Source: Mobula hypostoma (Eukaryota). From it: a DNA stretch of 64,000 bases. Below are positions 252 to 50,000 of the stretch, one piece after another. Position numbers and translations under genes: made by a program. The stretch is taken from assembly GCF_963921235.1 (NCBI RefSeq), contig NC_086097.1:74278001-74342000 (forward strand), given 5' to 3'. Each line of letters begins with the position of its first letter. The stretch's first letter is position 1. The notes below the pieces were generated by a model, which had not been told where the DNA came from, did not search any database, and saw nothing but the letters and a program-made list of their open reading frames with translations.

Positions 252-3200
252 ATAGAAACATATAAACATAGAAAACTTACAGCACAATACAGGCCCTTCA
301 ACCCACAATACTGTGCTAAACATGTACTTATTTTACAAATTACCTAGGGTTACCCATAGCCCTCTATTTCTCTAAGCTCCATGTACCTATCCAGGAGTCT
401 CTTAAAAGACCCTATCGTGACTACCTCCACCACCGTCACCGGCAGCCCATTCCACGCACTCACCACTCTCTGCGTAAAAAACTTACTCCTGACATCTCCT
501 CTGTACCTACTTCCAAGCACATTAAAACTGTGCCATCTTGTGTTAGCCATTTCAGCCATGGGAAAAAGCCTTTCATTATCCACAAGGTCAATGCCTCTCA
601 TCATCTTATACACCTCTATCAGGTCACTTCTCATCCTCCGCCGCTCCAAAGAGAAAAGGCCGAGTGCATTCAATCTTTTCTCATAAGGCATGCTCCCCAA
701 TCCAGACGACATCCTTGTAAATCTCCTCTGCACCCTTTCTATAGTTCCCACATCCTTCCTGTAGTGAGGTGGCCAGGACTGAGCACAGTACTCCAAGTGG
801 TGTCTGACCAAGGTCCTATATAGCTGTAACATTACCTCTCAGCTCTTAAGCTCAATCCCACTTTTGATGAAGGCCAATGCACTGTATACCTTCTTAACCA
901 CAGAGTCATCCTGCATGGCAGCTTTGAGTGTCCTATAGACTCAGAACATAAGATCCCTGATCCTCTACACTGCCAAGAGTCTTACCATTAATACTATATT
1001 CTGCCATCTTATTTGACCTACCAAAATGAACCACCTCACACTTATCTGGGTTGAACTCCATCTGCCACTACTCAGCCCAGTTTTGCATCCTATCAATGTC
1101 CCGCTGTAACCTCTGACAGCCCTCCACACTATCCACAACACCCCCAACCTTTGTGTCATCAGAAAATTTACTAACCCTTCCCTCCACTTCCTCATCCAGG
1201 TCATTTATAAAAATCACCAAGAGAAGGGATCCCAGAACAGATGCCTGAGGCACACCACTGGTCATCGACCTCCATGCAGAATATGACCCATCTATAACCA
1301 CTCTTTGCCTTCTGTGGGCAAGCCAATTTTGGATCCACAAAGCAATGTCCCCATGGATCCCATACCTCCTTACATTTTCAATAAGCCTTGCATGGGGTAC
1401 TTTATCAAATGCCTTGCTGAAATCCAAATACACTGCTCTACCTTCATCAACGTGTTTAGTCACCTCCTCAAAAAATTCAATCAGGCTCATAAGGCACGAC
1501 AAATCCTGCCTCTCAAGATCTTTTCCATCAACTTACCAACCACTAAAGTAAGTCTCACTGGTCTATAATTTCCTGGGCTATCTCTACTCCCTTTCTTGAA
1601 TAAGGGAACAACATCTGCAACCCTCCAATCCTCCGGAACCTCTCCCATCCCCATTGATGATGTAAAGACCATTGCCAGAGGCGCAGCAATCTCCTCCCTC
1701 ACCTGGGGTGCATCTCATCAGGACCTGGAGACTTATCCAACTTGATGCTTTCCAAAAGCTCCAGTACATCCTCTTTCTTAATGTCTATACGCTCAAGCTT
1801 TTCAATCCACTGTAAGTCATCCCTACAATTGCCAAGATCCTTTTCTGTAGTGAACATAGAAAGTATTCATTAAGAATGTGTGTTATCTCCTCTGGTTCCA
1901 TACACACTTTTCCACTGTCACACTTGACTTGTCCTATTCTGTCATGTCTTACCCTCTTGCTCTTTACATACTTGTAGAATGCCTTGGGGTTTTCTTTATT
2001 CCTGCTTACCAAGGCCTTCTCATGGCCCCTTCTGGCTCTCCTAATTTCATTCTTAAGCTTCTTCCTGCTAGCCTTATAATCTTCTAGATCTCTATCAATA
2101 CCTAGTTCTCAAACCTTTCATAAGCTTTTCTTCTTGACTAGATTTTCAACAGCCTTTGTACACCACGGTTCCCGTACCCTACCATCCTTTCCCTGTCTCA
2201 TTGGAATGTACCTATGCAGAACACCACTCAAATATCCCCTGAACATTTGCCACATTTCTGCCGTACATTTCCTTCAGAACATCTGTTCCCAATTTATGCT
2301 TCCAAGTTCCTGCCTGGCAGCTTCATATTTCCCCTTACTCCAATTAAGCACTTTCCTAACTTGTCTGTTCCTATCCCTCTCCAATGCTATGGTAACAGAG
2401 ATAGAATTGTGAACACTATCTCCAAAATGCTCCCTCACTGACAGATCTGACACCTAACCAGGTTCATTTCCCACTCTCAGAACAAGTACAGCCTCTCCTC
2501 TTGTAGACTTATCTCCATATTGTGTCAGTAAAGCTTCCTGAACACACCCAACGAACTCCATCCCATCTAAACCCCTTGCTCTAGGGAGATGCCAATTAAT
2601 ATTTGGGAAATTAAAATCTCCCACCATCTCTTATCTATCCCGTGTATGTCCCTTACCTATCATCTGCCTATCCTCCCTCTCACACTGTCTCCAAGCTTTC
2701 TCTATTTGTGAGCCAACTGCCCCTTCCTTCATCTCTTCAGTCGGTTCCCAACCCCCAGCAATTCTAGTTTAAACTCTCCCTAATAGCCTTAGCAAACCTC
2801 CCTGCCAGGATATTGGTCCCACTCGGATTCAAGTGCAACCCGTCCTTTTTGTATAGGTCGCGCCTGCCCCAAAAGAGGTCCCAATGATCCAGGAATCTGA
2901 ATCCCTCCCCCCTACTCCAATCCCTCAGCCATACATTTATCCTCCACCTCACTCTATTCCTATACTCACTGTCACATAGCACAGGCAGTAATCTGGAGAT
3001 TACTACCTTTGAAGTCCTGCTTCCCAACTTCCTTCCCAAGTCCCTGTAGTCTGTTTTCAGGACCTCCTCCCTTTTCCTACCTATGTTGTTGATACCAATA
3101 TGTACCACGCCCTTTGGCTGTTCACCTTCCCACTTCAGGATATCGTGGATGCGATCAGAAACATCCCAGACCCTGGCACCTGGAAGACAAACTACCATCC

Positions 3201-15315: not shown

Positions 15316-15849
15316 CAATGCGGGTATCTCCACAAGGATGTAACTAGCACCAGCAGAGCAATAATCCTTATTAACAAGGATCATTGCAGATTACAAACCT
15401 GAGAAGATCTGCAGATGCTGGAAGTCCGAGCAACACACACAAAATGCTGAAGGAACTCAGCAGGTCAGGCAGTATATGGAAAAGAGTACAGTCAACATTT
15501 CGGGTTGAGACCCTTCGGCAGGACTGGAGAAAAAAAGCTGAGGAGTAGATTTAAAAGCTGGGAGGAGGGGAGAGAGAAACTGGGATGGAGAGGGATGAAG
15601 TAAAGAGCTGGGAAGTTGATTGGTGAAAGAGATGCAGGGCTGGAGAAGGAGAAGTCTGATAGAAGAGGACAGAAGACTATGGAAGAAAGAAAATGGTGGA
15701 GGAGAAACCAGAGGGAGGTGATGGGTGGGCAAGGAGATAAGGGATGAGAGGAAAAAGGGGATGGGGAATAGTGGAGGAGATGGCGGCATTACCGGAAGTT
15801 CGAGAAATCGATGTTCATGCCATCAGGTTGCAGGCTACCCAACAGAATA

Positions 15850-18666
15850 TAGAACATAGAAAACCTACAGCACAATACAAGCCCTTCCACCCACAATGCT
15901 GTGCTGAACATGTACTTGCTTTAGAAATTACCTAGGGTTACCCATAGCCCTCTATTTCTCTGAGCTCCATGTACATATCCAGGAGTCTCTTAAAAGACCC
16001 TATCGTATCCGCCTCCATCACTGTCGCTGGCAGCCTAATCCGTGCACTCACTACTCTCTGTGTAAAAAAACTTACCCCTGACATCTCCTCTGTACCTACT
16101 TCCAAGCACTTTAAAACTGTGCCCTCTCATGTTAGCCATTTCAGTCCTGGATAAAAGCCTCTGACTATCCACACAATCAATGCCTCTCATCATCTTATAC
16201 ACCTCTATCAGGTCACCTTTCATCCTCCATCACTCCAAAGAGAAAAGACCGAGTTCACTCAACCTATTCTCATAAGGCATGCTCCCCAATCCAGGCAACA
16301 TCCTTCTAAATCTCCTCTGCACCCTTTTTATAGTTTCCACATCCTACCTGTAGTGAGGTGACCAGAACTGAGCACAGTACTCCAAATGGGGTCTGACCAG
16401 GGTCCTATTTAGCTGCAACATTACCTCTCGGCTCTTAAACTCAATCCCACGGTTGATGAAGGCCAATGTACTGTATGCCTTCTTAACCATAGAGTCATCC
16501 TGCACAGCAGCTTTGAGTGTCCTATAGACTCAGACCATAAGATCCCTCTGATCCTCTACACTGCCAAGAGTCTTACCATTAATACTATATTCTGCCATCA
16601 TATTTGACCTACCAAAATGAACCACCTCACACTTATCTGGGTTGAACTCCATCTGCCACTTCTTAGCATAGTTTTGCATCATATTACTGTCCCGCTGTAA
16701 CCTCTGAAAGCCCTCCACACTATCCACAATACCCCCAACCTATGTGCCATGAGCAAATTTACTAGCCTATCCCTCCACTTCCTCATCCAGGTCATTCATA
16801 AAAATCACAAAGAGAAGAGTCCCAGAACAGATTCCTGAGGCACACCACTGGTTACCAACCTCCATGCAGAATATGACCTGCCTACAACCACTCTTTGCCT
16901 TTTGTGGGCAAGCCAGTTCTGGATTCACAAAGCAAGGTCCCCTTGGATCCCATGCCTCCATACTTTCTCAATAAGCCTTGCATGGGATACCTTATCAAAC
17001 GCCATGCTGAAATCCATACACACTACATTTACTGCTGTACCTTCATCAACGTGCTTAGTCACATCCTCAAGAAATTCAGTAAGGTTTGTAAGGCACGACA
17101 AAGCTATGCTGACTATTCCTATTCATATTATGCCTCTCCAAATGTTCATAAATCCTGCCTCTCAAGATCTTTTCCATCAACTTACCAACCACTGAAGTAA
17201 GACTCACTGGTCTATAATTTCCTGGGCTACCTCTACTCCCTTTCTTGAATAAGGGAACAACATCTACAACCCTCCAATCCTCCGGAACCTCATCCATGTC
17301 CCCATGGATGATGCAAAGATCATTGCCAGAGGCTCGGCAATTCCTCCCTCGCCTCCCACTGCAAACTGGGGCACATCTCGTCCAGTCCCAGAGACTTATC
17401 CAACTTGATGCTTTTCAAAAGCTCCAGCACATCCTCTTTCTTAATGTCAATATGCTCAAACTTTTCAATCTGCTGTAGGTCATCCCTACAATCGCCAAGA
17501 TCCTTTTCTGTAGTGAATACTGAAGCAAAGTATTCATTAAGTACCTCTGCTATCTATCCTTTTCTGTAGTGAATACTGAAGCAAAGTATTAACTAAGTAC
17601 CTCTGCTATCTCGTCCGGTTCCATACGTACTTTTCCACTGTCACACTTGATAGGTCCTATTCTCTCATGTCTTATCCTCTTGCTCTTTACATACTTTTAG
17701 AATACCTTGGGGTTTTCATTAATCCTGCTCACCAAGGCCTTCTCATGGCCCCTTCTGGCTCTCCTAATTTAATTCTTAAGCTCATTCCTGCTAGCCTTAT
17801 AATCTTCCAGATCTCTATCATTACCTAGTTTTTTGAACCTTTTGTAAGCTTTTCTTTTCTTCTTGACTAGATTATCAACAGCCTTTGTACACCATGGTTC
17901 CTGTACCCTACCATCCTTTCCCTGTCTCATTGGAACATACTTATGCAGAATACCACTCAAATATCCCCTGAACATTTCCCTGATAACTTCTGTTCCCAAT
18001 TTATACTTCCAAGTTCCTGCCTGATAGCTTCATATTTCCCCTTACTCCAATTAAACACTTTCCTAACTTGTCTGTTTCTATTCCTCTCCAATTCGATGGT
18101 AAAGGAGATAGAATTATGATCACTATCTCCAAAATGCTCTCCCACTGAGAGATCTGACACCTGATCAGGTTAATTTCAAAATACCAGATCAAGTACAGCT
18201 GCTCCTGTGTCAGGAAACCATCTTGAACACATATAACAAACTCCACCCCATCTAAACCCCTTGCTCTAAGGAGATGCTAATCAATATCTGGGAAATTAAA
18301 ATCTCTCACCATGACAACCCTGTTATTATTACACCTTTCCAGAATCTGTCTTCCTGTCTGCTCCTCGATGTCCCTGTTACTATTGGGTGGTCTATAAAAA
18401 ACACCCATTAGAGTTATTGCCCCCTTCCTCTTTCTAACTTCCACCCACAGAGACTCAATAGACAATCCTTCCATGACTTCCTCCTTTTCTGCAGCTGTGA
18501 CACTATCTTTGATTAGCAGTGCCATGCCCCCACCTCTCTTGCCTCTGTCCCTGTCCTTTCTGAAACATCCGAAGCCTGGCACTCTAAGTAACCATTCCTG
18601 CCCCTGAGCCATCCAAGTGTCTGTAACAACATGTCAAGTGTCTGTCTGTAACAACATCATAGCTCC
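15850..18666 (-). mobile_element. CR1/HER1-like LINE, 5'-truncated in the EN domain, nested in Penelope
   Basis: GVFYRPPN, DFNFPDI and SDHN (APE endonuclease) plus NYRPVSLTSVVGK and RT motifs. Near-colinear with 252-2625. Confidence 0.93.
17500..17611. repeat. 56-bp tandem duplication inside CR1
   Basis: atccttttctgtagtgaatactgaagcaaagtatt...tacctctgctatct starts at 17500 and 17556. The copy near 1840 has one unit. Confidence 0.92.
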
Positions 18667-19604
18667 ATAAGGTTTTGTTCCTCCAACCTAAGTGTGGCCT
18701 CATCATGCCAGTGGAGGAGGTCATGGGTAGACATATCAGAATGGGAATAGGAGTGCAATTAAAATGAGCGGCCACTGGTAGATCCCGCTTTTTCTGGCAG
18801 AAGGAATGTTGGTGTTCGGCGAAGCGGGTCTCCCAATCTACGTCAAATTTCACTGATATACAGAAGGCCGCACCGGGAGCACCAAACACAGACTTTGACC
18901 CCAACAGACCCACAGGTGAACTGTTACCTCGCTTGGAAGGACTGTTGGGGCCCTTGAATGGTCATGAGGGAGGAAATATAGGGCAGGTATAGCACTTGTT
19001 CCGTTTGCAAGAGTAAGTGCCAGGAGGGAAATCAGTGGGGAGGGATGAATGCACAAGGGAGTCGCGTAGGGAGCAATCCCTGCGGAAAGCAGAAAGTTGG
19101 GGGGAGGGGGAGAGAAAAATCTACTGCTCAGCTTTTTTTCTCCAGTCCTGTCGAGGGGTCGCAGTCCAAAATCTCAACTGTACTCTTTTCTGTAGATGCT
19201 ATCTGGCCTGTTGAATTCCTCCAGCATTTTGTCATCATTGCATCATTGCATATTACCCGGTTTAATGGAGAGGATCTGTCCCTAGAAAATCGATATCTGA
19301 ATTGCTTTCTTTCTTCTTCTAATGTGCCCATTTGGGGTGAGGGATGACCTTCACTACTCCATTTGGAGAATAGAGAGTACCTGGTGCATAATTGCTTTTC
19401 ATCTGGGATGATTATTATACACCAATCATCTTGTGGACACAAAACCCTTGTCCAGTGGCAGGGAGGTCAAAGAGCAAAGGATATCAGCTCAGTTGTGTAA
19501 AACAATCTGTGTGTGGGCACAGTAGCAATAAACCTGTATCAGCAGCCTGTGGGCTTTCCATCTGCACACCATCTATCTTGACCACAAACTACTTTAACCC
19601 ATGA

Positions 19605-21655
19605 CTCCGAATCGGAATCTGGTTTATTATCACTGATATATGTCCTGAAATTTGCAGTAGTGCTGAGCAAGGCAAAAAATACTATAATTTACAACAGATA
19701 GATAGATAAATGACTAAGCGCATACATAGCTACATACAGACATAGTGCGAAAGAGAAATAGTGAAGTAGTGTTCATTGGTTCATAGACCATTTAGAAATC
19801 AAATGGCAAGAGGAAAGAAGCTTTTCCTAAAATGTTGTGTGTGGATCTCCAGCTCTGATCCCCCAGGGAGGACTAGCTCATGGACCTCTGGTTTCCTCCT
19901 TCTGAAGTCAATAATCAGCTCCTTGTTCTTACTAACATTGATTAAGAGGTTGTTGCTGTGGCACCACAGAACCAGATTTTCAATCGCCTTTCTTTCTGCT
20001 GATTTGTCACCAGCTTTGATTCAATCTAGGACAGTGGTGTCATCAGCAAGTTTGAATGTGGCATTGGAGCTATGCTTAGCCTCACAGTCATAAGCGCAAA
20101 GCAAGTAGAGCAGGGGCTAAGCACATAGCCTTGGAGTGCACCTGTGCTGATGGAGATTGTGGAGGGGATATTGTTGCCAATCTAAACTGACTGAGGTCAG
20201 CAAGTAAGGAAATCAAGGATTCTATTACACAAGGAGATATTGAGGCCAAGGTCTTGAAGCTTATTGATTAGTTTTGACTGGTATTGCATGCTGAGCCGAG
20301 ATTGGTAAAGATCATCCTGATGTATGCATTTTTGCTGTCCAGTTGTTCCAGGATTGAGTGAAGAGTCAATGAGATGGCATCTTCCTCCTCCTGATCTTGT
20401 ATGCTCTGCTTCCAATTCAAACCCAAAGAAGGATGAACCCTCATTTAAGGTACAAAGTGAGAAGTGCCCAAAGTTACCCAACTTGGAGACACTTGGGTGT
20501 TCTCCGCTAAATAAGAGCAGACAAGGGCTGAAATGTGTACCAAGTGCATCAGTGGCTCAGTGTTCAACAGAAGGTATCACAGAAACAACTGCGCAGCCCT
20601 CACTTGCTGCACCAGACTGAGGTGATAAGTTACCACTGGATAATAGTTTGACTGAGATGCTGAGTCTGGACGGAGCAGCCACGAGGCAGAGTCAGTCTGA
20701 ATGTGGACAAGACAGTCGTCGGACTGTGGGGAGAATCTGAGGAGAGTAGCAAGGAGAATAGAAATACAGTGCAATATATTTCAGAACACAGGTGGACACA
20801 TGGTGCAACACATACCAGAGGTCTCCAAGAGTCTGAGCCAAGAACCTATTGACACTTCAGAAGAACTAGACCCAGATACAGCTGTAAATTCAGGGCCAGC
20901 GCCTTGGGCTACTGGTTCTAGCACTCCTGAAAGAGATACAGGGCTGGAGAAGGGGGAGTCTGATAGAAGAGGGCACAAGCCCTCTGGTGCTCCTCCCCTC
21001 TTTTCTTTCTTCCATGGCCTTCTGTCTTCTTCTGTATGACTCCCCCTTCTCTGTCCCTGTATCACTTTCACCAATCAACTTCTCAGCTCTTTACTTCACA
21101 CCCCTCCCCCTTCAAGTTTCTCTCTCCCCTCTTCCCACCTTTTAAATCTATTCCTCAGCTTTTTTCCTCCATTCCTGCTGAAGGATCTCGGCCCAAATAT
21201 CAACTGTATGCTTTTCCATAGATGCTGCCAACCCTGCTGAATTCCTCCTGCATTCTGTGTGTGTTACTTGGATTTCCAGCATCTGCGGATATTCTATTGT
21301 TTTCTCCACATTTCATGCCTGGTTTTCTGGTACAGACCTGGGTCACCACACGTGAATGCCACAGATCTAGCCCTCAGCAGACTACGGACCTCTTGGTTCA
21401 TCCATGGCTTTTGATTTGGATACGTGCAGTAAGTTCCCATAGGCACATGCTCATTCACCCAGGTTTTAATGAAGCCAGTGACAGCTGTGGCATACTCATT
21501 CAGATTCAAAAATGAATCCCTGAATATTGATTCAATACAGCACTCCTGCACCTCCCTTGTCTATATCCTCTTGATCCTCACAACTGGTGCTGCTGTCTTC
21601 AGTCTGTGCCTATATTCAGAGAGTGGAAGTACAGCCAGGTGACTAGACTTCCCAA
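19605..21655 (-). mobile_element. Rex1/Babar LINE, rearranged, with inserts at ~20382-21302
   Basis: Encodes YPNQKPWMNQEVRSLL, KLINKLQDLGL..LCNRILDFLT, TGALQGYVLSPCSTC-like and KLADDTTV. Tail is gaatcggaatctggtttattatcactga. Confidence 0.82.
20929..21302 (+). mobile_element. Penelope-like pLTR fragment with a 5' inverted hairpin
   Basis: 20985-21300 is the reverse complement of 15405-15720. 20929-20983 is an inverted copy of about 21015-21070. Confidence 0.88.
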
Positions 21656-33830: not shown

Positions 33831-34635
33831 ACATTGCCTTATAATCTATTTACTTCAGTAGTTTCCCCCATAGGGAAGGAAATGGACCCACCCTGGAATA
33901 TCCAAAACTCCAGACACGTAGCTCTTAATCACCTCTGAAATGGCCAATTAAGGAGACTTACAAAATAAAGTGTAACAAGAGTAAAACCTGACCAACTAGC
34001 TTATGTTAGACAAGAAATAGTTTTGAAAACAACAGAGGCACATCCAGCAATGTTGACCTTGCAAAATATCTCACATGAAAATCTGGGGAATCTGCCAAAG
34101 TGCGAGATTCAAGCAATTGCCTGAACATAATTATTTTCAGATTATATGCCAAATCTTCCATTACAAATGTTGGATATGTCCCAGTAGGGTAGAGTCTCTG
34201 GAGATGACATCATACTGCTATAAAGTTGGGAGGAAGTCCCTTGCACTGAGTCTGGTCTCCATGGCTGCGTGACATCAAATCAAACATGGGCAAGAAAGCC
34301 TCTTGCTGATCCCAGCTGCCCTTCTATTGCTCCCTGTTGAACATCACTTGGGAGAAGTACTGAGGCACTTCAATGTCTATCATCTATTATTTATTGCATT
34401 ATTAATGGCTATTCCAGAAGTACACAGATGCCGGCCTTGGCTTGAGAATGGTGGTGAGGGAATATGCATCAAGGAAAATCCTTGTGCAAGACAAATACCA
34501 TCTTTACACTGATGACACCCTCTGTCGTGCCCAGTGGAGTTACTGCGGTACAAAATTCAAAACTGGGTCATTAGAAGCAGTAGGTTTGTACAACACTGAA
34601 AATTGATCTTACTATTCTTATTTGATCCATCATGT

Positions 34636-35338
34636 GACAGATGGAGTTCAACCCAGATAGGTGTCAGGTGGTTCATTTTGGTAGGTCAAATATGATGGCA
34701 GAATGTAGTATTAATGGTAAGACTCTTGGCCTTGTGGAGGATCAGAGGGATCTTGGAGTCCGAGTCTATAGGACACTCAAAGCTGCTGTACAGGTTGACT
34801 CTGTGGTTAAGAAGGCATTTGGTGTATTGGCCTTCATCAACCATGGGATTGAGTTTAAGAGCTAAGAGGTAATGTTACAGCTATATGGGACCCTGGTCAG
34901 ACCCCACTTGGAGGACTGTGCTCAGTTCTGGTCACCTCACTACAGGAAGGATGTGGAAACTATAAAAAGGGTGCAGAGGAGATTTACAAGGATGTTGCCT
35001 GGATTGGGGAGCATGCCTTATGAGAATAGGTTGAGTGACCTTGGCCTTTTCTCCTTGGAGCGATGGAGGATGAGAGGTGACCTGATAGAGGTGTATAAGA
35101 TGATGAGAGGCATTAGCCGTGTGGATAGTCAGAGGCTTTTTCCCAGGGCTGAAATGGCTGTCACAAGAGGGCACACTTTTAAGGTGCTTGGAAGTAAGTA
35201 CAGAGATATCAGCTGTAGGTTTTTTCACACAGAGAGTAGTGAGTGCATGGAATGGGCTACCGGCGATGGTGGTGGAGGCGGATATGATAGGGTCTTTAGG
35301 GCCTGTATTGTGCTGTAGTTTTTCTATATTTCTATGTT
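34636..35338 (+). mobile_element. CR1/HER1-like 3' fragment
   Basis: Encodes MEFNPDRC and LYGTLVRPHLEDC. Tail is tttctatatttctatgtt. Confidence 0.92.
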
Positions 35339-44376: not shown

Positions 44377-44547
44377 AACACACACAAAGTGCCAGAGGAA
44401 CTCAGCAGGCCAGGCAGCATCTATGGAAAAGATGAAGGGCTCTGTCCGAAATATCAACTGTTTACTCTTTTCCATAGGTGTTGCCTGGCCTGCTGAGTTC
44501 CATCAGCATTTTGTGTGTGTTGCTTGGATTTCCAGCATCTGCAGATG
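44377..44547 (+). mobile_element. Penelope-derived hairpin mini-element
   Basis: 56-bp inverted arms at 44377-44432 and 44466-44521. The arm/loop junction and loop read GATGAAGGGCTCTGTCCGAAA. Tail is gatttccagcatctgcagat. Confidence 0.88.
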
Positions 44548-46075: not shown

Positions 46076-46287
46076 CTTCACTATTTGCGGCGACAAATTA
46101 ACAAAATTTACCTCAGTAAAAGTATTTTTAGTGATGTTTTAGTCTGATTTCTTAACTTTTTAACTACCAAAGAGCTGTCACATGCATTCAGTAGTATCAT
46201 CTTAACTGGAAATTCAAAAATACATGAATAATTTGTAAAATTTCCAAGAATTAACAATTTATAAACATTTCTGAATTTCAGAGATAG

Positions 46288-47005
46288 AACATAGAACAAA
46301 GAAATCTACAGCACATTACAGGCACTTCAGCCCACAATGTTGTGCCGGCCATGTAACCTACTCTAGAAACTGCCTAGAGTTTCCCTACCGCATAACCCTC
46401 TATTTTTCTAAGCTCCACGTACCTATCTAAGAGTCTCTTAGAAGACCTTATTTTATCCACCCCTACCACCGTTGTTGGCTGTGCATTCCGTGCACCCACC
46501 ACTCTCTGTGTGAAAAACTTACCCCAACATCTCCTCATATCTACTTCTAAACACCTTAAAACTCTGCCCCCTCGTGTTAGCCATTTCAGCCCTGGGAAAA
46601 AGCCACTGGCTATCCAGATGATCATAAGGCATGCTCTTCAATCCAGGCAACATCCTTGTAAATTTCCTCTGCACTCTTTCTATAGTATCCATGTCCTTCT
46701 TGTAGTGAGATGCCTGGAACTGAACACATGGGCGGTCTAACTAAGGTCTTATATAGCTTTAACATTACCTCACGGCTCTTAAACTCAATCCCATGGTTGA
46801 TAAAGGCCATCACACCATACCCCTTCTTAACAACTTTGTCAAACTGAGCAGCGGCTTTGAGCGTCCTATGGACACGGACCCCAAGATCTCTCAGATCCTC
46901 CACACTGCCAAGAGTCTTACCATTAATATTATATTCTGTCTTCAAATTTGACCTACTGTAATGAACAACTTCACAGTTATCTGGGTTGAACTCCATCTGC
47001 CATTT
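46288..47005 (-). mobile_element. CR1/HER1-like 3' fragment
   Basis: Encodes WQMEFNPDNC and LYKTLVRP. Same family as 252-1070. Confidence 0.92.
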
Positions 47006-50000
47006 CCATCTGATATTTTGAAAAATTATTAAAATCAGTGACAGAAGACAAAGCATCTGCAAAGTGTGTCTGGACATTTAGTGAGCTGGCATTTGGCACA
47101 ATGCCACCCAATATCCAATTGCTGCTGATCTGGATGGTTGAAAAAGCCAAAGAGATTTTCCCAGGGCTTGAGTTCCTGTGTCACCGGTAATGAGCAGTTG
47201 ACCAAATCCATTAATCTGGACAGAAAGAAAACAAATCTTCAATATTTTTTTCCATCAGATAGAGCATGAAATGCGGATTCTGTTAAAGATACTGGGCAAC
47301 TTTATAGAAATGAACCCTTTGCAAGTGCATATCTAATTGCCTTTTGCAATGTCCATGTAGTCCAGTTCTGCCATTTTTTCAATAAATATTTATCCATTTA
47401 TGTTTAAGAGCTTTTCTTCTTTTCTCAGCTTGCTCTTTTGCAATAATGTCAGATTGGTTTTGGATCTACTTTTTGATTTCTCCATCACTGTTTCTTGAAA
47501 GTCGCTCATAACTGTAAAAATGTACTAACATACAGCCTTTACTCCGGGGACAACACTGCCGTCGTCCCAGTCTGCCTGCAGACCTGGAACTTCTTATCCT
47601 ATGTATCATTCATTTTGTGTCTGAAGAGTGATAGAAGCTCCACAGTGGAAGTTATCTGTGAAGATGAGCTGCTTCTTTTAAATATTCAGCTTACATTTCT
47701 CCTCCGTGCCACTTTTCACAAAGTGCATTGCTTCATACTGAACGGCATTAGACAGCAACTGCTAGGCATCCACCTATTTCCCTAGTCCATGCCTCCCGGA
47801 GATCTACTGTGGTTATGCTCTCCATTTGCTCAAATTAGTGCCATTGGTAATTTTTACTGTTGTAGTTTCTATAGCCAAGTGCATTCCATTTATAAATGAC
47901 AGCATAGGCAATCAAATCCAGTACTGACTCCGGGATGAGCAATGTGTATTTCTTTTCAGTGAGAATAACATGGACCTGGAACATCATAAAGGATACAAAT
48001 GAGGAGCATTTCTGGTGATTGAGGGTGATGTTGGGACACATAAAGCTGGTACTAAAGAAATGAAAATAATCTTCCTTGTATAATTGAATGAAATGGGAAG
48101 TTGCTTATGCCGGGGCATATAGGAGTTTTTCTTGAGTTTGGCCCTGACAATGGTGCCAGAAAAACCACTTAGGGATCAAATAACAGTGCCAATATTTAAT
48201 TGGAAATAGTTTATCTTTACTGAAAGACTGATGTTGGGTGGATCTAAAAAGTACATTTGTTTTTCACAGCTCACACTATTTCTAAGATAAAAAAGAAGAA
48301 AGAGATTGCATATGTAATTATTTCTATCATATTCTTTTCTATTTTACATCACAGGCATATATAAATAAAATAATTTTAAAATTTTGGACTTCAAATTTTA
48401 AATTGACCAACTTCTAACTGTTGTATTAAAGAATATTGTCAGAGTAATCATTGACATCAAAATTCTAAAATGCACAATTTCCTGAAAGAAATGTACAAAT
48501 TCTCGATCTATTTGTCTTCAATAAAAACATTTTAATATGTATTATCTGGTGCCAACTTTCTTTTTGTAGTTCACATCACTGGTCAGATGAGGGAGCTAAA
48601 ATGTGCTAAAATGTTCATATCTTTGGTCGTTTAAGGGACCAGCGTATCTGAGCATATTAATTTTTATATAAAATAACAACCTAATTAATAATTTAGTCTG
48701 TGGCACTATGAAATATCACTGAAGTAGAAACTACCTTCTAATCCTTTCTACTCACTGGATAAAAATCTCACCTCTACTATTTTTAGGTATTTCCACTTTA
48801 AGATAAATCGAAAATATTACCATAATCTATTCCTGATGTGGAAGTTTCTTTATCCAATAAAAATTAATTACCTGATGATTAAAAATAAATAATGTAGATA
48901 ATACAGCCAAAAAGGAACTTAATTCCAAGAAACTGAATTATCAGACAAAGAAATTTTGAAAAACTTTAACTTCAGAAGCACAGACTAAATTGATAAGTGA
49001 CCCAACTGGAATCTACATATTTTCAGATTAAGATTCTCTGTAGCAGTCAAGTGTATTAGCCAACCCCTTAATGTGCCACTGTTTTATAATAAACACTTAA
49101 CAATGTAATATACCTTCATTGTTCATGTGATTTATACATTACATTATTCTATTTGTTTCACTCATTAATCTCAAGACACAAAGGAATCGGGGGTTCATGG
49201 CCCCCTGCCTGAAACCAAATCAGACTCCTCATATTTTTATATATGTAGATAAAACTACAGATCTGATGAAAGGAGAGCTGGAATGTGTTACAAGATGACT
49301 GTACTGTGGCATGAGTCTACACTACTTATAAAATTATATTTACTGAGTCATTTGATTGTCTAATTTTCCAATAACTCATTCGGCCCTTTGCAATAATAGT
49401 AATAAAGAAGATGAAGGAGGAGTCAAATTGTCCATTTTTGAACTCCCAGGCAAAACTCATTTGAAAAACCCACATCTTTAAACTCATTATTGCCATTGTT
49501 TGCTGGATTAGCTAGCTCTGTTATATCTTCTCTATCAAGATATATCTTCAGCAAATCTTCTGTTTGTTCAGGTTTGCAACGCTGCTGCAGAATGGCTGTT
49601 GATATAATAATGGCTCAACTTAACAAAACTACAATTCCTTATTGATCAGAAGGGGCCTGCATTAGTGTAGAGAACCTGATCAGTTAACAACATTTCATTT
49701 CAAGTTATAATTCCTGATTAAATCAGTACTAGCCAGTCTAAATGTACAACCTACTAACACAGAAAATTCTGACAGAAGGCTGGAAACAATGTGGCAAAAA
49801 TATGTAGTTCCTCTCCCTTTACTAGGAAAATTAGGTCTACACTATATAGTCACTAGTTCTTTGTGCAGTAACTATGCGGTATTATTTGTACGGTTTTTTT
49901 TTAAGATTTAGGCTTTCCTGGGTGCAAGCAATCTATCATGTATTGCGTGGTGAGAGTGTTATGACTTACCGAGAATGGATTGTTGTTTCAGTCTTCTTAA

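Follow-up and report, generated by a model that had tools for sequence, protein, structure and literature searches.

The locus examined here raises the question of whether a hammerhead motif with cytosine at core position 6 (C6), where the CUGANGA box has adenine (A6), is a product of decay or the trait of a Penelope-like element (PLE) subfamily that spread with it, and what such a change would have meant for self-cleavage. At least nine pieces of the Penelope-like repeat lie within the window, that is, the whole 64-kb stretch of DNA analysed. The features referred to below, in window positions, are:

15489..15526, minus strand: hammerhead motif, minimal type I, a decayed copy of a C6 (CUGCCGA) master (from sequence and fold)
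15526-15522 and 15493-15489, minus strand: arms of stem I (from sequence)
15513-15502, minus strand: stem II, followed by GAAA at 15501-15498, minus strand
15515..15521, minus strand: core box C3-A9 with C at positions 6 and 7; position 6 is base 15518
15494..15498, minus strand: palindrome of helix III with the letter at the cleavage site (by comparison of the focal copy with its subfamily consensus)
15538..15552, minus strand: subfamily marker 5′ of the motif, independent of the core
15402..15842 (approximate ends), minus strand: 5′-truncated Penelope-like insertion with ORF end, pseudo-LTR, hammerhead and tail
15789..15842, minus strand: end of the ORF (GIY-YIG endonuclease part), final codons with the stop; the frame at locus L125 ends in the same motif
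20928..21295, plus strand: second C1-type insertion; motif at 21170-21206, CTGCTGA core by CpG decay, stems damaged
19117..19241, plus strand: third C-family fragment; motif at 19143-19180 with T6
44377..44546, no single strand: two fragments of the older A6 subfamily, arranged head to head; the one on the plus strand begins inside the core at 44431

Among the genomic copies we distinguish three successive C6 subfamilies, C0 (CUGCUGA), C1 and C2 (both CUGCCGA), together with a young subfamily, Y (CUGACGA), and an older one, A (CUGAUGA). The focal insertion is closest to C1 (90.5% over 419 nt). Its roughly 440 nt open with the last ORF codons, continue through a pyrimidine-rich pseudo-LTR of about 260 nt and the motif, and finish in a 90-nt tail. 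On the minus strand, positions 15526-15489 read as the original prediction had it: a 5-bp stem I, CTGCCGA, an extra A, a 4-bp stem II, GAAA, four letters and the 3′ arm of stem I. The four letters had been taken for a very short stem III; they are instead a loopless palindrome (ACGU in the masters, AUGU in the focal copy) that is unable to close within one molecule. The family masters carry ACGU and the triplet GUC (C17); relative to the subfamily consensus, CpG-type changes at 15497 and 15494 have broken the focal palindrome and turned N17 from C to U. As judged by the loss of both the palindrome and C17, the focal copy is inert. Its 38-mer folds with a z-score of −1.8, which for a single 38-mer is weak evidence on its own, and an Rfam scan returned no hammerhead family among four matches at E≤1, as expected for a hammerhead without helix III.

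The motif class itself is known: metazoan PLEs carry minimal type I hammerheads in their pseudo-LTRs, and these also occur as solo copies in very large numbers (Cervera and De la Pena 2014, PMC4209133). A stem I of 4–5 bp, the G10.1-C11.1 pair and an extra base after A9 are present in the focal copy and in the C1, C2 and A consensuses; GAAA, a palindromic 15.2-16.2 and GUC are present in the masters (ACGU, C17) and decayed in the focal copy (AUGU, U17). The 5-bp stem I, the extra base after A9, G10.1-C11.1 and the loopless palindromic helix III are thus shared with the published minimal hammerheads, whereas stem II is 4 bp here and 7–8 bp in Schistosoma (PMC4209133). The core sets the locus apart: the CUGANGA box is present in A and Y and absent from the focal copy and the C6 subfamily, which carries C6 throughout, while the core variant named in the text of that study is U3-A8 (PMC4209133).

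For the sister copies, the cores had been predicted correctly, namely CTGTCGA at 19143-19180 and CTGCTGA at 21170-21206 (both plus strand), with the copy at 44431 (plus strand) beginning at GATGA, but neither plus-strand sister still folds as a hammerhead. Since the 19143 copy nearly carries the upstream marker of the C6 family, we assign it to that family, and its T6 is best read as a C-to-T transition. Fold-back head-to-head pairs whose turning point is the front edge of the motif, or close to it, are common (44377-44521 in the window; L133:1295-1486; L154:5786-5993; L135:2429-2605). A second, longer repeat family, which looks LINE-like and ends in short ATAGAA-type repeats, occurs at window positions 265-2499, 15853-18206, 34634-35297 and 46286-47006 (copies 82–96% alike) and adjoins the 5′ end of the focal insertion. 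Within that insertion, a splice-donor-like site overlaps the ORF stop (15792-15787, minus strand; the donor-like GT is missing from Y), and a polypyrimidine tract with CAG ends inside stem I (15540-15524, minus strand). A genome search for the joined, spliced form gave three matches, none with the ORF upstream (0/3), and the idea of an intron is not supported.

To ask whether C6 is inherited, we queried the genome with an exact 30-mer of the motif in which positions 6 and 7 were free, with the reversed sequence as control. The query gave 1,266 matches (999 A6, 189 C6 followed by a pyrimidine, 78 other) and the control none. Under the C marker, which lies outside the core, whole counts were 1,770 C6, the focal copy among them, versus 46 A6, so that C6 makes up 97.5% of C6 plus A6; the young A6 subfamily Y holds 160 C6 among 75,976 copies (0.2%). 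The first 100 of the 650 C-marker matches listed, read by eye, comprised 89 C6, 5 A6, 5 T6 and 1 deletion, with CTG in 36, CCA in 29 and CCG in 20, the pattern of symmetric CpG decay; C6 was seen by eye in 6 of the first 100 of 210 matches listed for the sister marker. Clustering of 166 copies with core positions 6–8 masked placed C6 in two clusters (52/62) and rarely in the main others (0/28, 4/41 and 1/21). Motif columns differ among the subfamily consensuses less often than flanking columns (8/38 vs 35/57, p=1e-4). The marker-linked counts and the clustering support genome-wide the proposal that a subfamily spread with a CUGCYGA core, and the position-6 tally against background, which had been put forward as a possible refutation, does not refute it: C6 lies far above the 0.2% of the young A6 subfamily. 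C6 is a subfamily trait, not noise.

The claim of a C6 subfamily holds alongside an overall predominance of A6, which is the commonest state both among the exact matches and in a random sample. In sixty evenly spaced 10-kb stretches (600 kb) we found 112 family matches, corresponding to roughly 650,000 fragments genome-wide, and among the 79 readable cores 63 were A6 and 9 were C6. The latter extrapolate to about 52,000 C6 copies (24,000–99,000), an estimate that leans upward, as two of the nine sampled C6 cores resemble degraded copies of older families. We also considered an A6 intermediate carrying the C marker and rejected it; its 46 matches look like scattered back-mutations, and 12 of 24 such loci have the C2 loop. 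At G000:C9:199637091-199684163, a stretch of less than 50 kb, both strands together carry four identical C0-type matches, probably through a local duplication.

The A6 majority would also fit C6 being either mutational noise or the mark of non-autonomous passengers moved by A6 elements, as would the decay of the core after insertion, which is at least as fast as that of the tail (24/270 vs 50/854). Noise is already refuted by the counts, given the contrast between 97.5% and 0.2%, and passengers would have to be reconciled with purifying selection on the ORF between C6 masters, described below; taken together, this explanation is very improbable.

A 623-aa RT-EN frame at L125, a Y copy, terminates in the same ORF-end motif as the focal insertion, and the hammerhead lies about 260 nt 3′ of the ORF stop, inside the pseudo-LTR. 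Pfam gives this frame a GIY-YIG match (E=6e-4, 20.4 bits, under the 22.6 cut-off) and no RVT_1 match, and the frame has no PDB match; Atlas clusters of RT type matched it at 0.97. RT and EN motifs are visible in the C2 consensus, with a CxxxxCxxC Zn-finger-like motif between them at codon 478. Ahead of the Zn-finger-like linker, the open frame at L125:8131-9999 is shifted over a short stretch by two indels that compensate each other. The element thus has a single ORF with RT and C-terminal GIY-YIG, as expected of EN+ PLEs, and its anatomy and linker are those of the Neptune/Nematis type, with which it shares the RT, the Zn-finger-like linker and the C-terminal GIY-YIG, as well as partial tandems and inverted 5′-truncated copies (Craig 2021, PMC8557442). 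The motif stands at both ends of a 3.5-kb unit at L122 (Y), forming a direct pseudo-LTR pair; inverted C6 pseudo-LTR pairs occur at L205 and L206. Of 14 loci that we extended, none held a C6 element with a direct pair of pseudo-LTRs. A non-LTR retrozyme (non-coding tandem repeats, non-autonomous) was considered and rejected: the copies are dispersed and the coding ORF is under purifying selection.

Evidence for that selection comes from 73 aligned long copies, which we grouped with an ORF tree and with diagnostic sites; the alignment of C6 copies to the young element extends to as much as 2.9 kb. In two in-frame segments (367 non-CpG codons), the C1 consensus (13 copies) and the C2 consensus (20 copies) differ at 10 synonymous and 4 non-synonymous sites (pN/pS 0.15, p=7e-4), with no stop among the called codons. 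On other branches pN/pS is 0.09–0.19, versus 0.73 for copies compared with their own consensus. Since the ORF differences are mostly silent, the C6 masters would have needed their protein while carrying C6, and they were likely autonomous. Copies now differ from their own consensus by 6.6–13.6%, and the C6 masters are extinct.

We then analysed the order in which the cores arose. The C0 class is defined by 217 matches in which C6 occurs together with the older A-type marker and position 7 is mostly U; C0 loci read CTG in 23/29, CCG in 4/29 and CTA in 2/29, and CCA was not seen by eye among the first 100 matches listed. The prevalence of U7 and the lack of a listed CCA indicate that the C0 master read CUGCUGA. 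At position 7 and at four ORF columns (1572, 1579, 1731 and 1788), C1, C2 and Y have derived states, whereas C0 copies mostly retain the ancestral ones. The same pattern is seen at columns 2095 and 2099, though these lie in or beside the marker, and column 2069 conflicts with it (Y ancestral; C0, C1 and C2 derived). In trees of seven consensus rows, with CpG columns and positions 6–8 left out, Y groups with C1/C2 and away from C0 (bootstrap/SH-aLRT 97/99; ORF alone 95/91; without marker columns 95/99). Constraining C0, C1 and C2 together gave AU p values of 0.050, 0.048 and 0.091 (seven consensus rows), and a per-copy ORF tree was too weak to place Y. By divergence in the 3′ region, A, C0, C1 and C2 are inseparable in age (9.2–10.0%), while long copies give 11.7% for A and 8.6–8.7% for C.

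These data suggest, with borderline support, that Y, the youngest and most abundant subfamily, nests inside a C6 grade. The simplest path of the core then appears to be CUGAUGA to CUGCUGA to CUGCCGA to CUGACGA, in three single steps of which the last is a reversion. Along the Y stem we saw no intermediate with C6; of the earliest Y-type copies, taken without selection, those whose core is readable carry A6. Y may also owe its A6 to recombination with an A6 lineage that went unseen. We rejected as a candidate a stage with C6 inside Y: the 20 Y-type C6 loci are scattered over the Y subtypes, and the readable early-Y cores are A6.

Changes along these branches are unevenly distributed. On the Y stem, 2/36 motif columns changed versus 82/245 upstream (p=3e-4); one of the two motif changes keeps a G-U pair and the other is position 6. 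For the C6 phase the comparison is 1/34 versus 27/245 (17 of them from one deletion), with p=0.22 and low power. C2 copies (e.g. L177, L182 and L198) have a UUCG loop II and a 17-nt pseudo-LTR deletion, both of which arose within the C6 lineage. The youngest Y copies (L115, L122, L125, L130, L141 and L162) have U at 11.1, so that G-U replaces the usual G10.1-C11.1, and this is a second non-canonical change in a successful subfamily. By eye, the AUG in the CUGAUGA of subfamily A (e.g. L027 and L083-L111) would open a short upstream frame; C0, C1, C2 and Y are without it.

What a C6 core does to cleavage can be approached from other hammerheads. A natural A6C occurs in the hammerhead of phage Bcep176, which has k_obs <0.1 per min (Perreault 2011, PMC3088659) and prefers Mn2+ to Mg2+, cutting at 0.004 per min in 1 mM Mg2+ versus 0.31 in 1 mM Mn2+; in a second hammerhead the change lowers the Mg2+ rate by orders of magnitude, and A6C retains Mn2+ activity (Naghdi 2020, PMC7151607). 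The PAc hammerhead of Anolis carolinensis Poseidon, likewise a pseudo-LTR hammerhead with stems I and II and a tail beyond the motif, cuts only with its protein, and its catalytic mutants still insert in vitro (Frangieh 2024, PMC11167929). In PAc the core is canonical and the ORF begins within stem II (PMC11167929); in the young element here the long frame apparently begins some 160 nt further downstream, and its protein has the CxxxxCxxC linker of Neptune/Nematis type. PAc insertions are made from uncut RNA (PMC11167929), and the copy ends suggest the same reading here: of 187 copies, 4 have their 5′ end within 2 nt of the cut site and 33 within the first 8 nt of the motif, counts for which we use the total only, as a split by family is biased.

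Based on these observations, we propose, with a probability of roughly 0.55, that the focal motif is the decayed hammerhead of a C6 PLE subfamily in which C6 likely weakened cleavage, that spread nevertheless continued, and that the change was probably reversed later. In a tandem transcript, two motif copies would form a double hammerhead, held together by pairing of their ACGU palindromes. By analogy with the A6C rates, which come from architectures other than the dimeric minimal type, C6 would lower Mg2+-dependent cutting, and insertion from uncut RNA would allow this loss to be tolerated. The surviving lineage Y (CUGACGA) would then have regained A6 by a point change, after which the motif came under constraint. 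A weakened ribozyme whose cut lies off the direct path of insertion is favoured by (i) the A6C rates, (ii) insertion of the anole mutants and (iii) the lack of a pile-up of copy ends at the cut site. The wide spread of the C6 lineage and the apparent return to A6 in its youngest branch suggest that these elements benefit from cutting without depending on it.

Folding predictions add a possible compensation. The G5-C17 pair has a predicted probability of 0.95–0.98 in the A6 consensuses versus 0.01–0.07 in C6, and the palindrome is predicted to be mostly unpaired only in C6. The energy gap between the double hammerhead and the best dimer is 8–9 kcal/mol for C6 and 14–19 for A6, and the double hammerhead is never the predicted minimum. 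C6 is thus predicted to open a self-inhibiting helix and may regain in folding part of what it loses in chemistry.

Taken further, the same predictions could mean that C6 is a working, retuned ribozyme: it would break an A6 lock, in which G5-G8 pair with the palindrome and cut site, and free the palindrome for dimers, and net cutting in the cell could be similar, perhaps aided by the element's protein or Mn2+. The predicted absence in C6 of the G5-C17 lock and blocked palindrome, and the smaller computed dimer gap, agree with this, as do the position of both C6-phase motif changes at free sites (N7 and loop II), the protein dependence of the anole hammerhead (PMC11167929) and the Mn2+ activity of A6C (PMC7151607). 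However, nearest-neighbour folding ignores tertiary structure and never yields the double hammerhead as minimum, the Mg2+ penalty of A6C is large in both tested ribozymes (PMC7151607), and if C6 were equally good a return to A6 would need chance, at about 4% (a rough figure from the synonymous rate). We consider a fully retuned ribozyme unlikely.

The copy ends could also be read as saying that cleavage is irrelevant, the motif being a structural or protein-binding signal near the RNA 5′ end in which position 6 drifted both ways. Ends do not pile up at the cut site, the 5′ end position does not differ between C6 and A6 copies, and front-edge ends are equally common in C6 (16/56) and non-Y A6 (28/75, p=0.35). 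In the youngest Y masters G-U replaces the conserved G10.1-C11.1; Naiad PLEs lack canonical hammerheads and have spread nonetheless (PMC8557442), and hammerhead mutants insert in vitro (PMC11167929). A plain hairpin signal would not, however, need the unpaired catalytic letters C3, U4, G5, A9 and G12-A14, which are invariant in six subfamily consensuses, and the sole core change on the long Y stem goes towards the canonical base. A motif that was simply of no use would be hard to square with the probable return to A6 later on, and a signal indifferent to cleavage seems doubtful to us.

Within the preferred reading of weakened cleavage and later reversal, a more specific history can be offered tentatively: a long A6C phase that traded chemistry for folding, maybe with dependence on Mn2+ or protein, followed by a selected reversion to A6 before the largest expansion. 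If true, this would be a recorded loss and repair of a ribozyme active site in a vertebrate retrotransposon lineage.

A6C itself is known from one phage hammerhead (PMC3088659, PMC7151607). No description of A6C in a Penelope element came up in our literature search, which extended neither to Lunse et al. 2017 (PLE variants) nor to the figures and one supplementary file of Cervera 2014. Bcep176 has the change at the same core position, but as a single intergenic phage motif (PMC3088659, PMC7151607); here it occurs in a dimer-type hammerhead of an animal retrotransposon, in an estimated tens of thousands of copies with a lineage history. Searches fixed on CUGANGA overlook about a tenth of the copies in this genome. 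The role of the hammerhead in PLEs has been called open (PMC8557442, PMC11167929), and this genome provides a natural series of four cores on a near-constant 38-nt scaffold, each with a record of its spread. That series shows how a lineage that was likely autonomous could build up tens of thousands of copies, by our estimate, while carrying a change at the core that is crippling in hammerheads elsewhere, and it suggests a later return to the canonical base.
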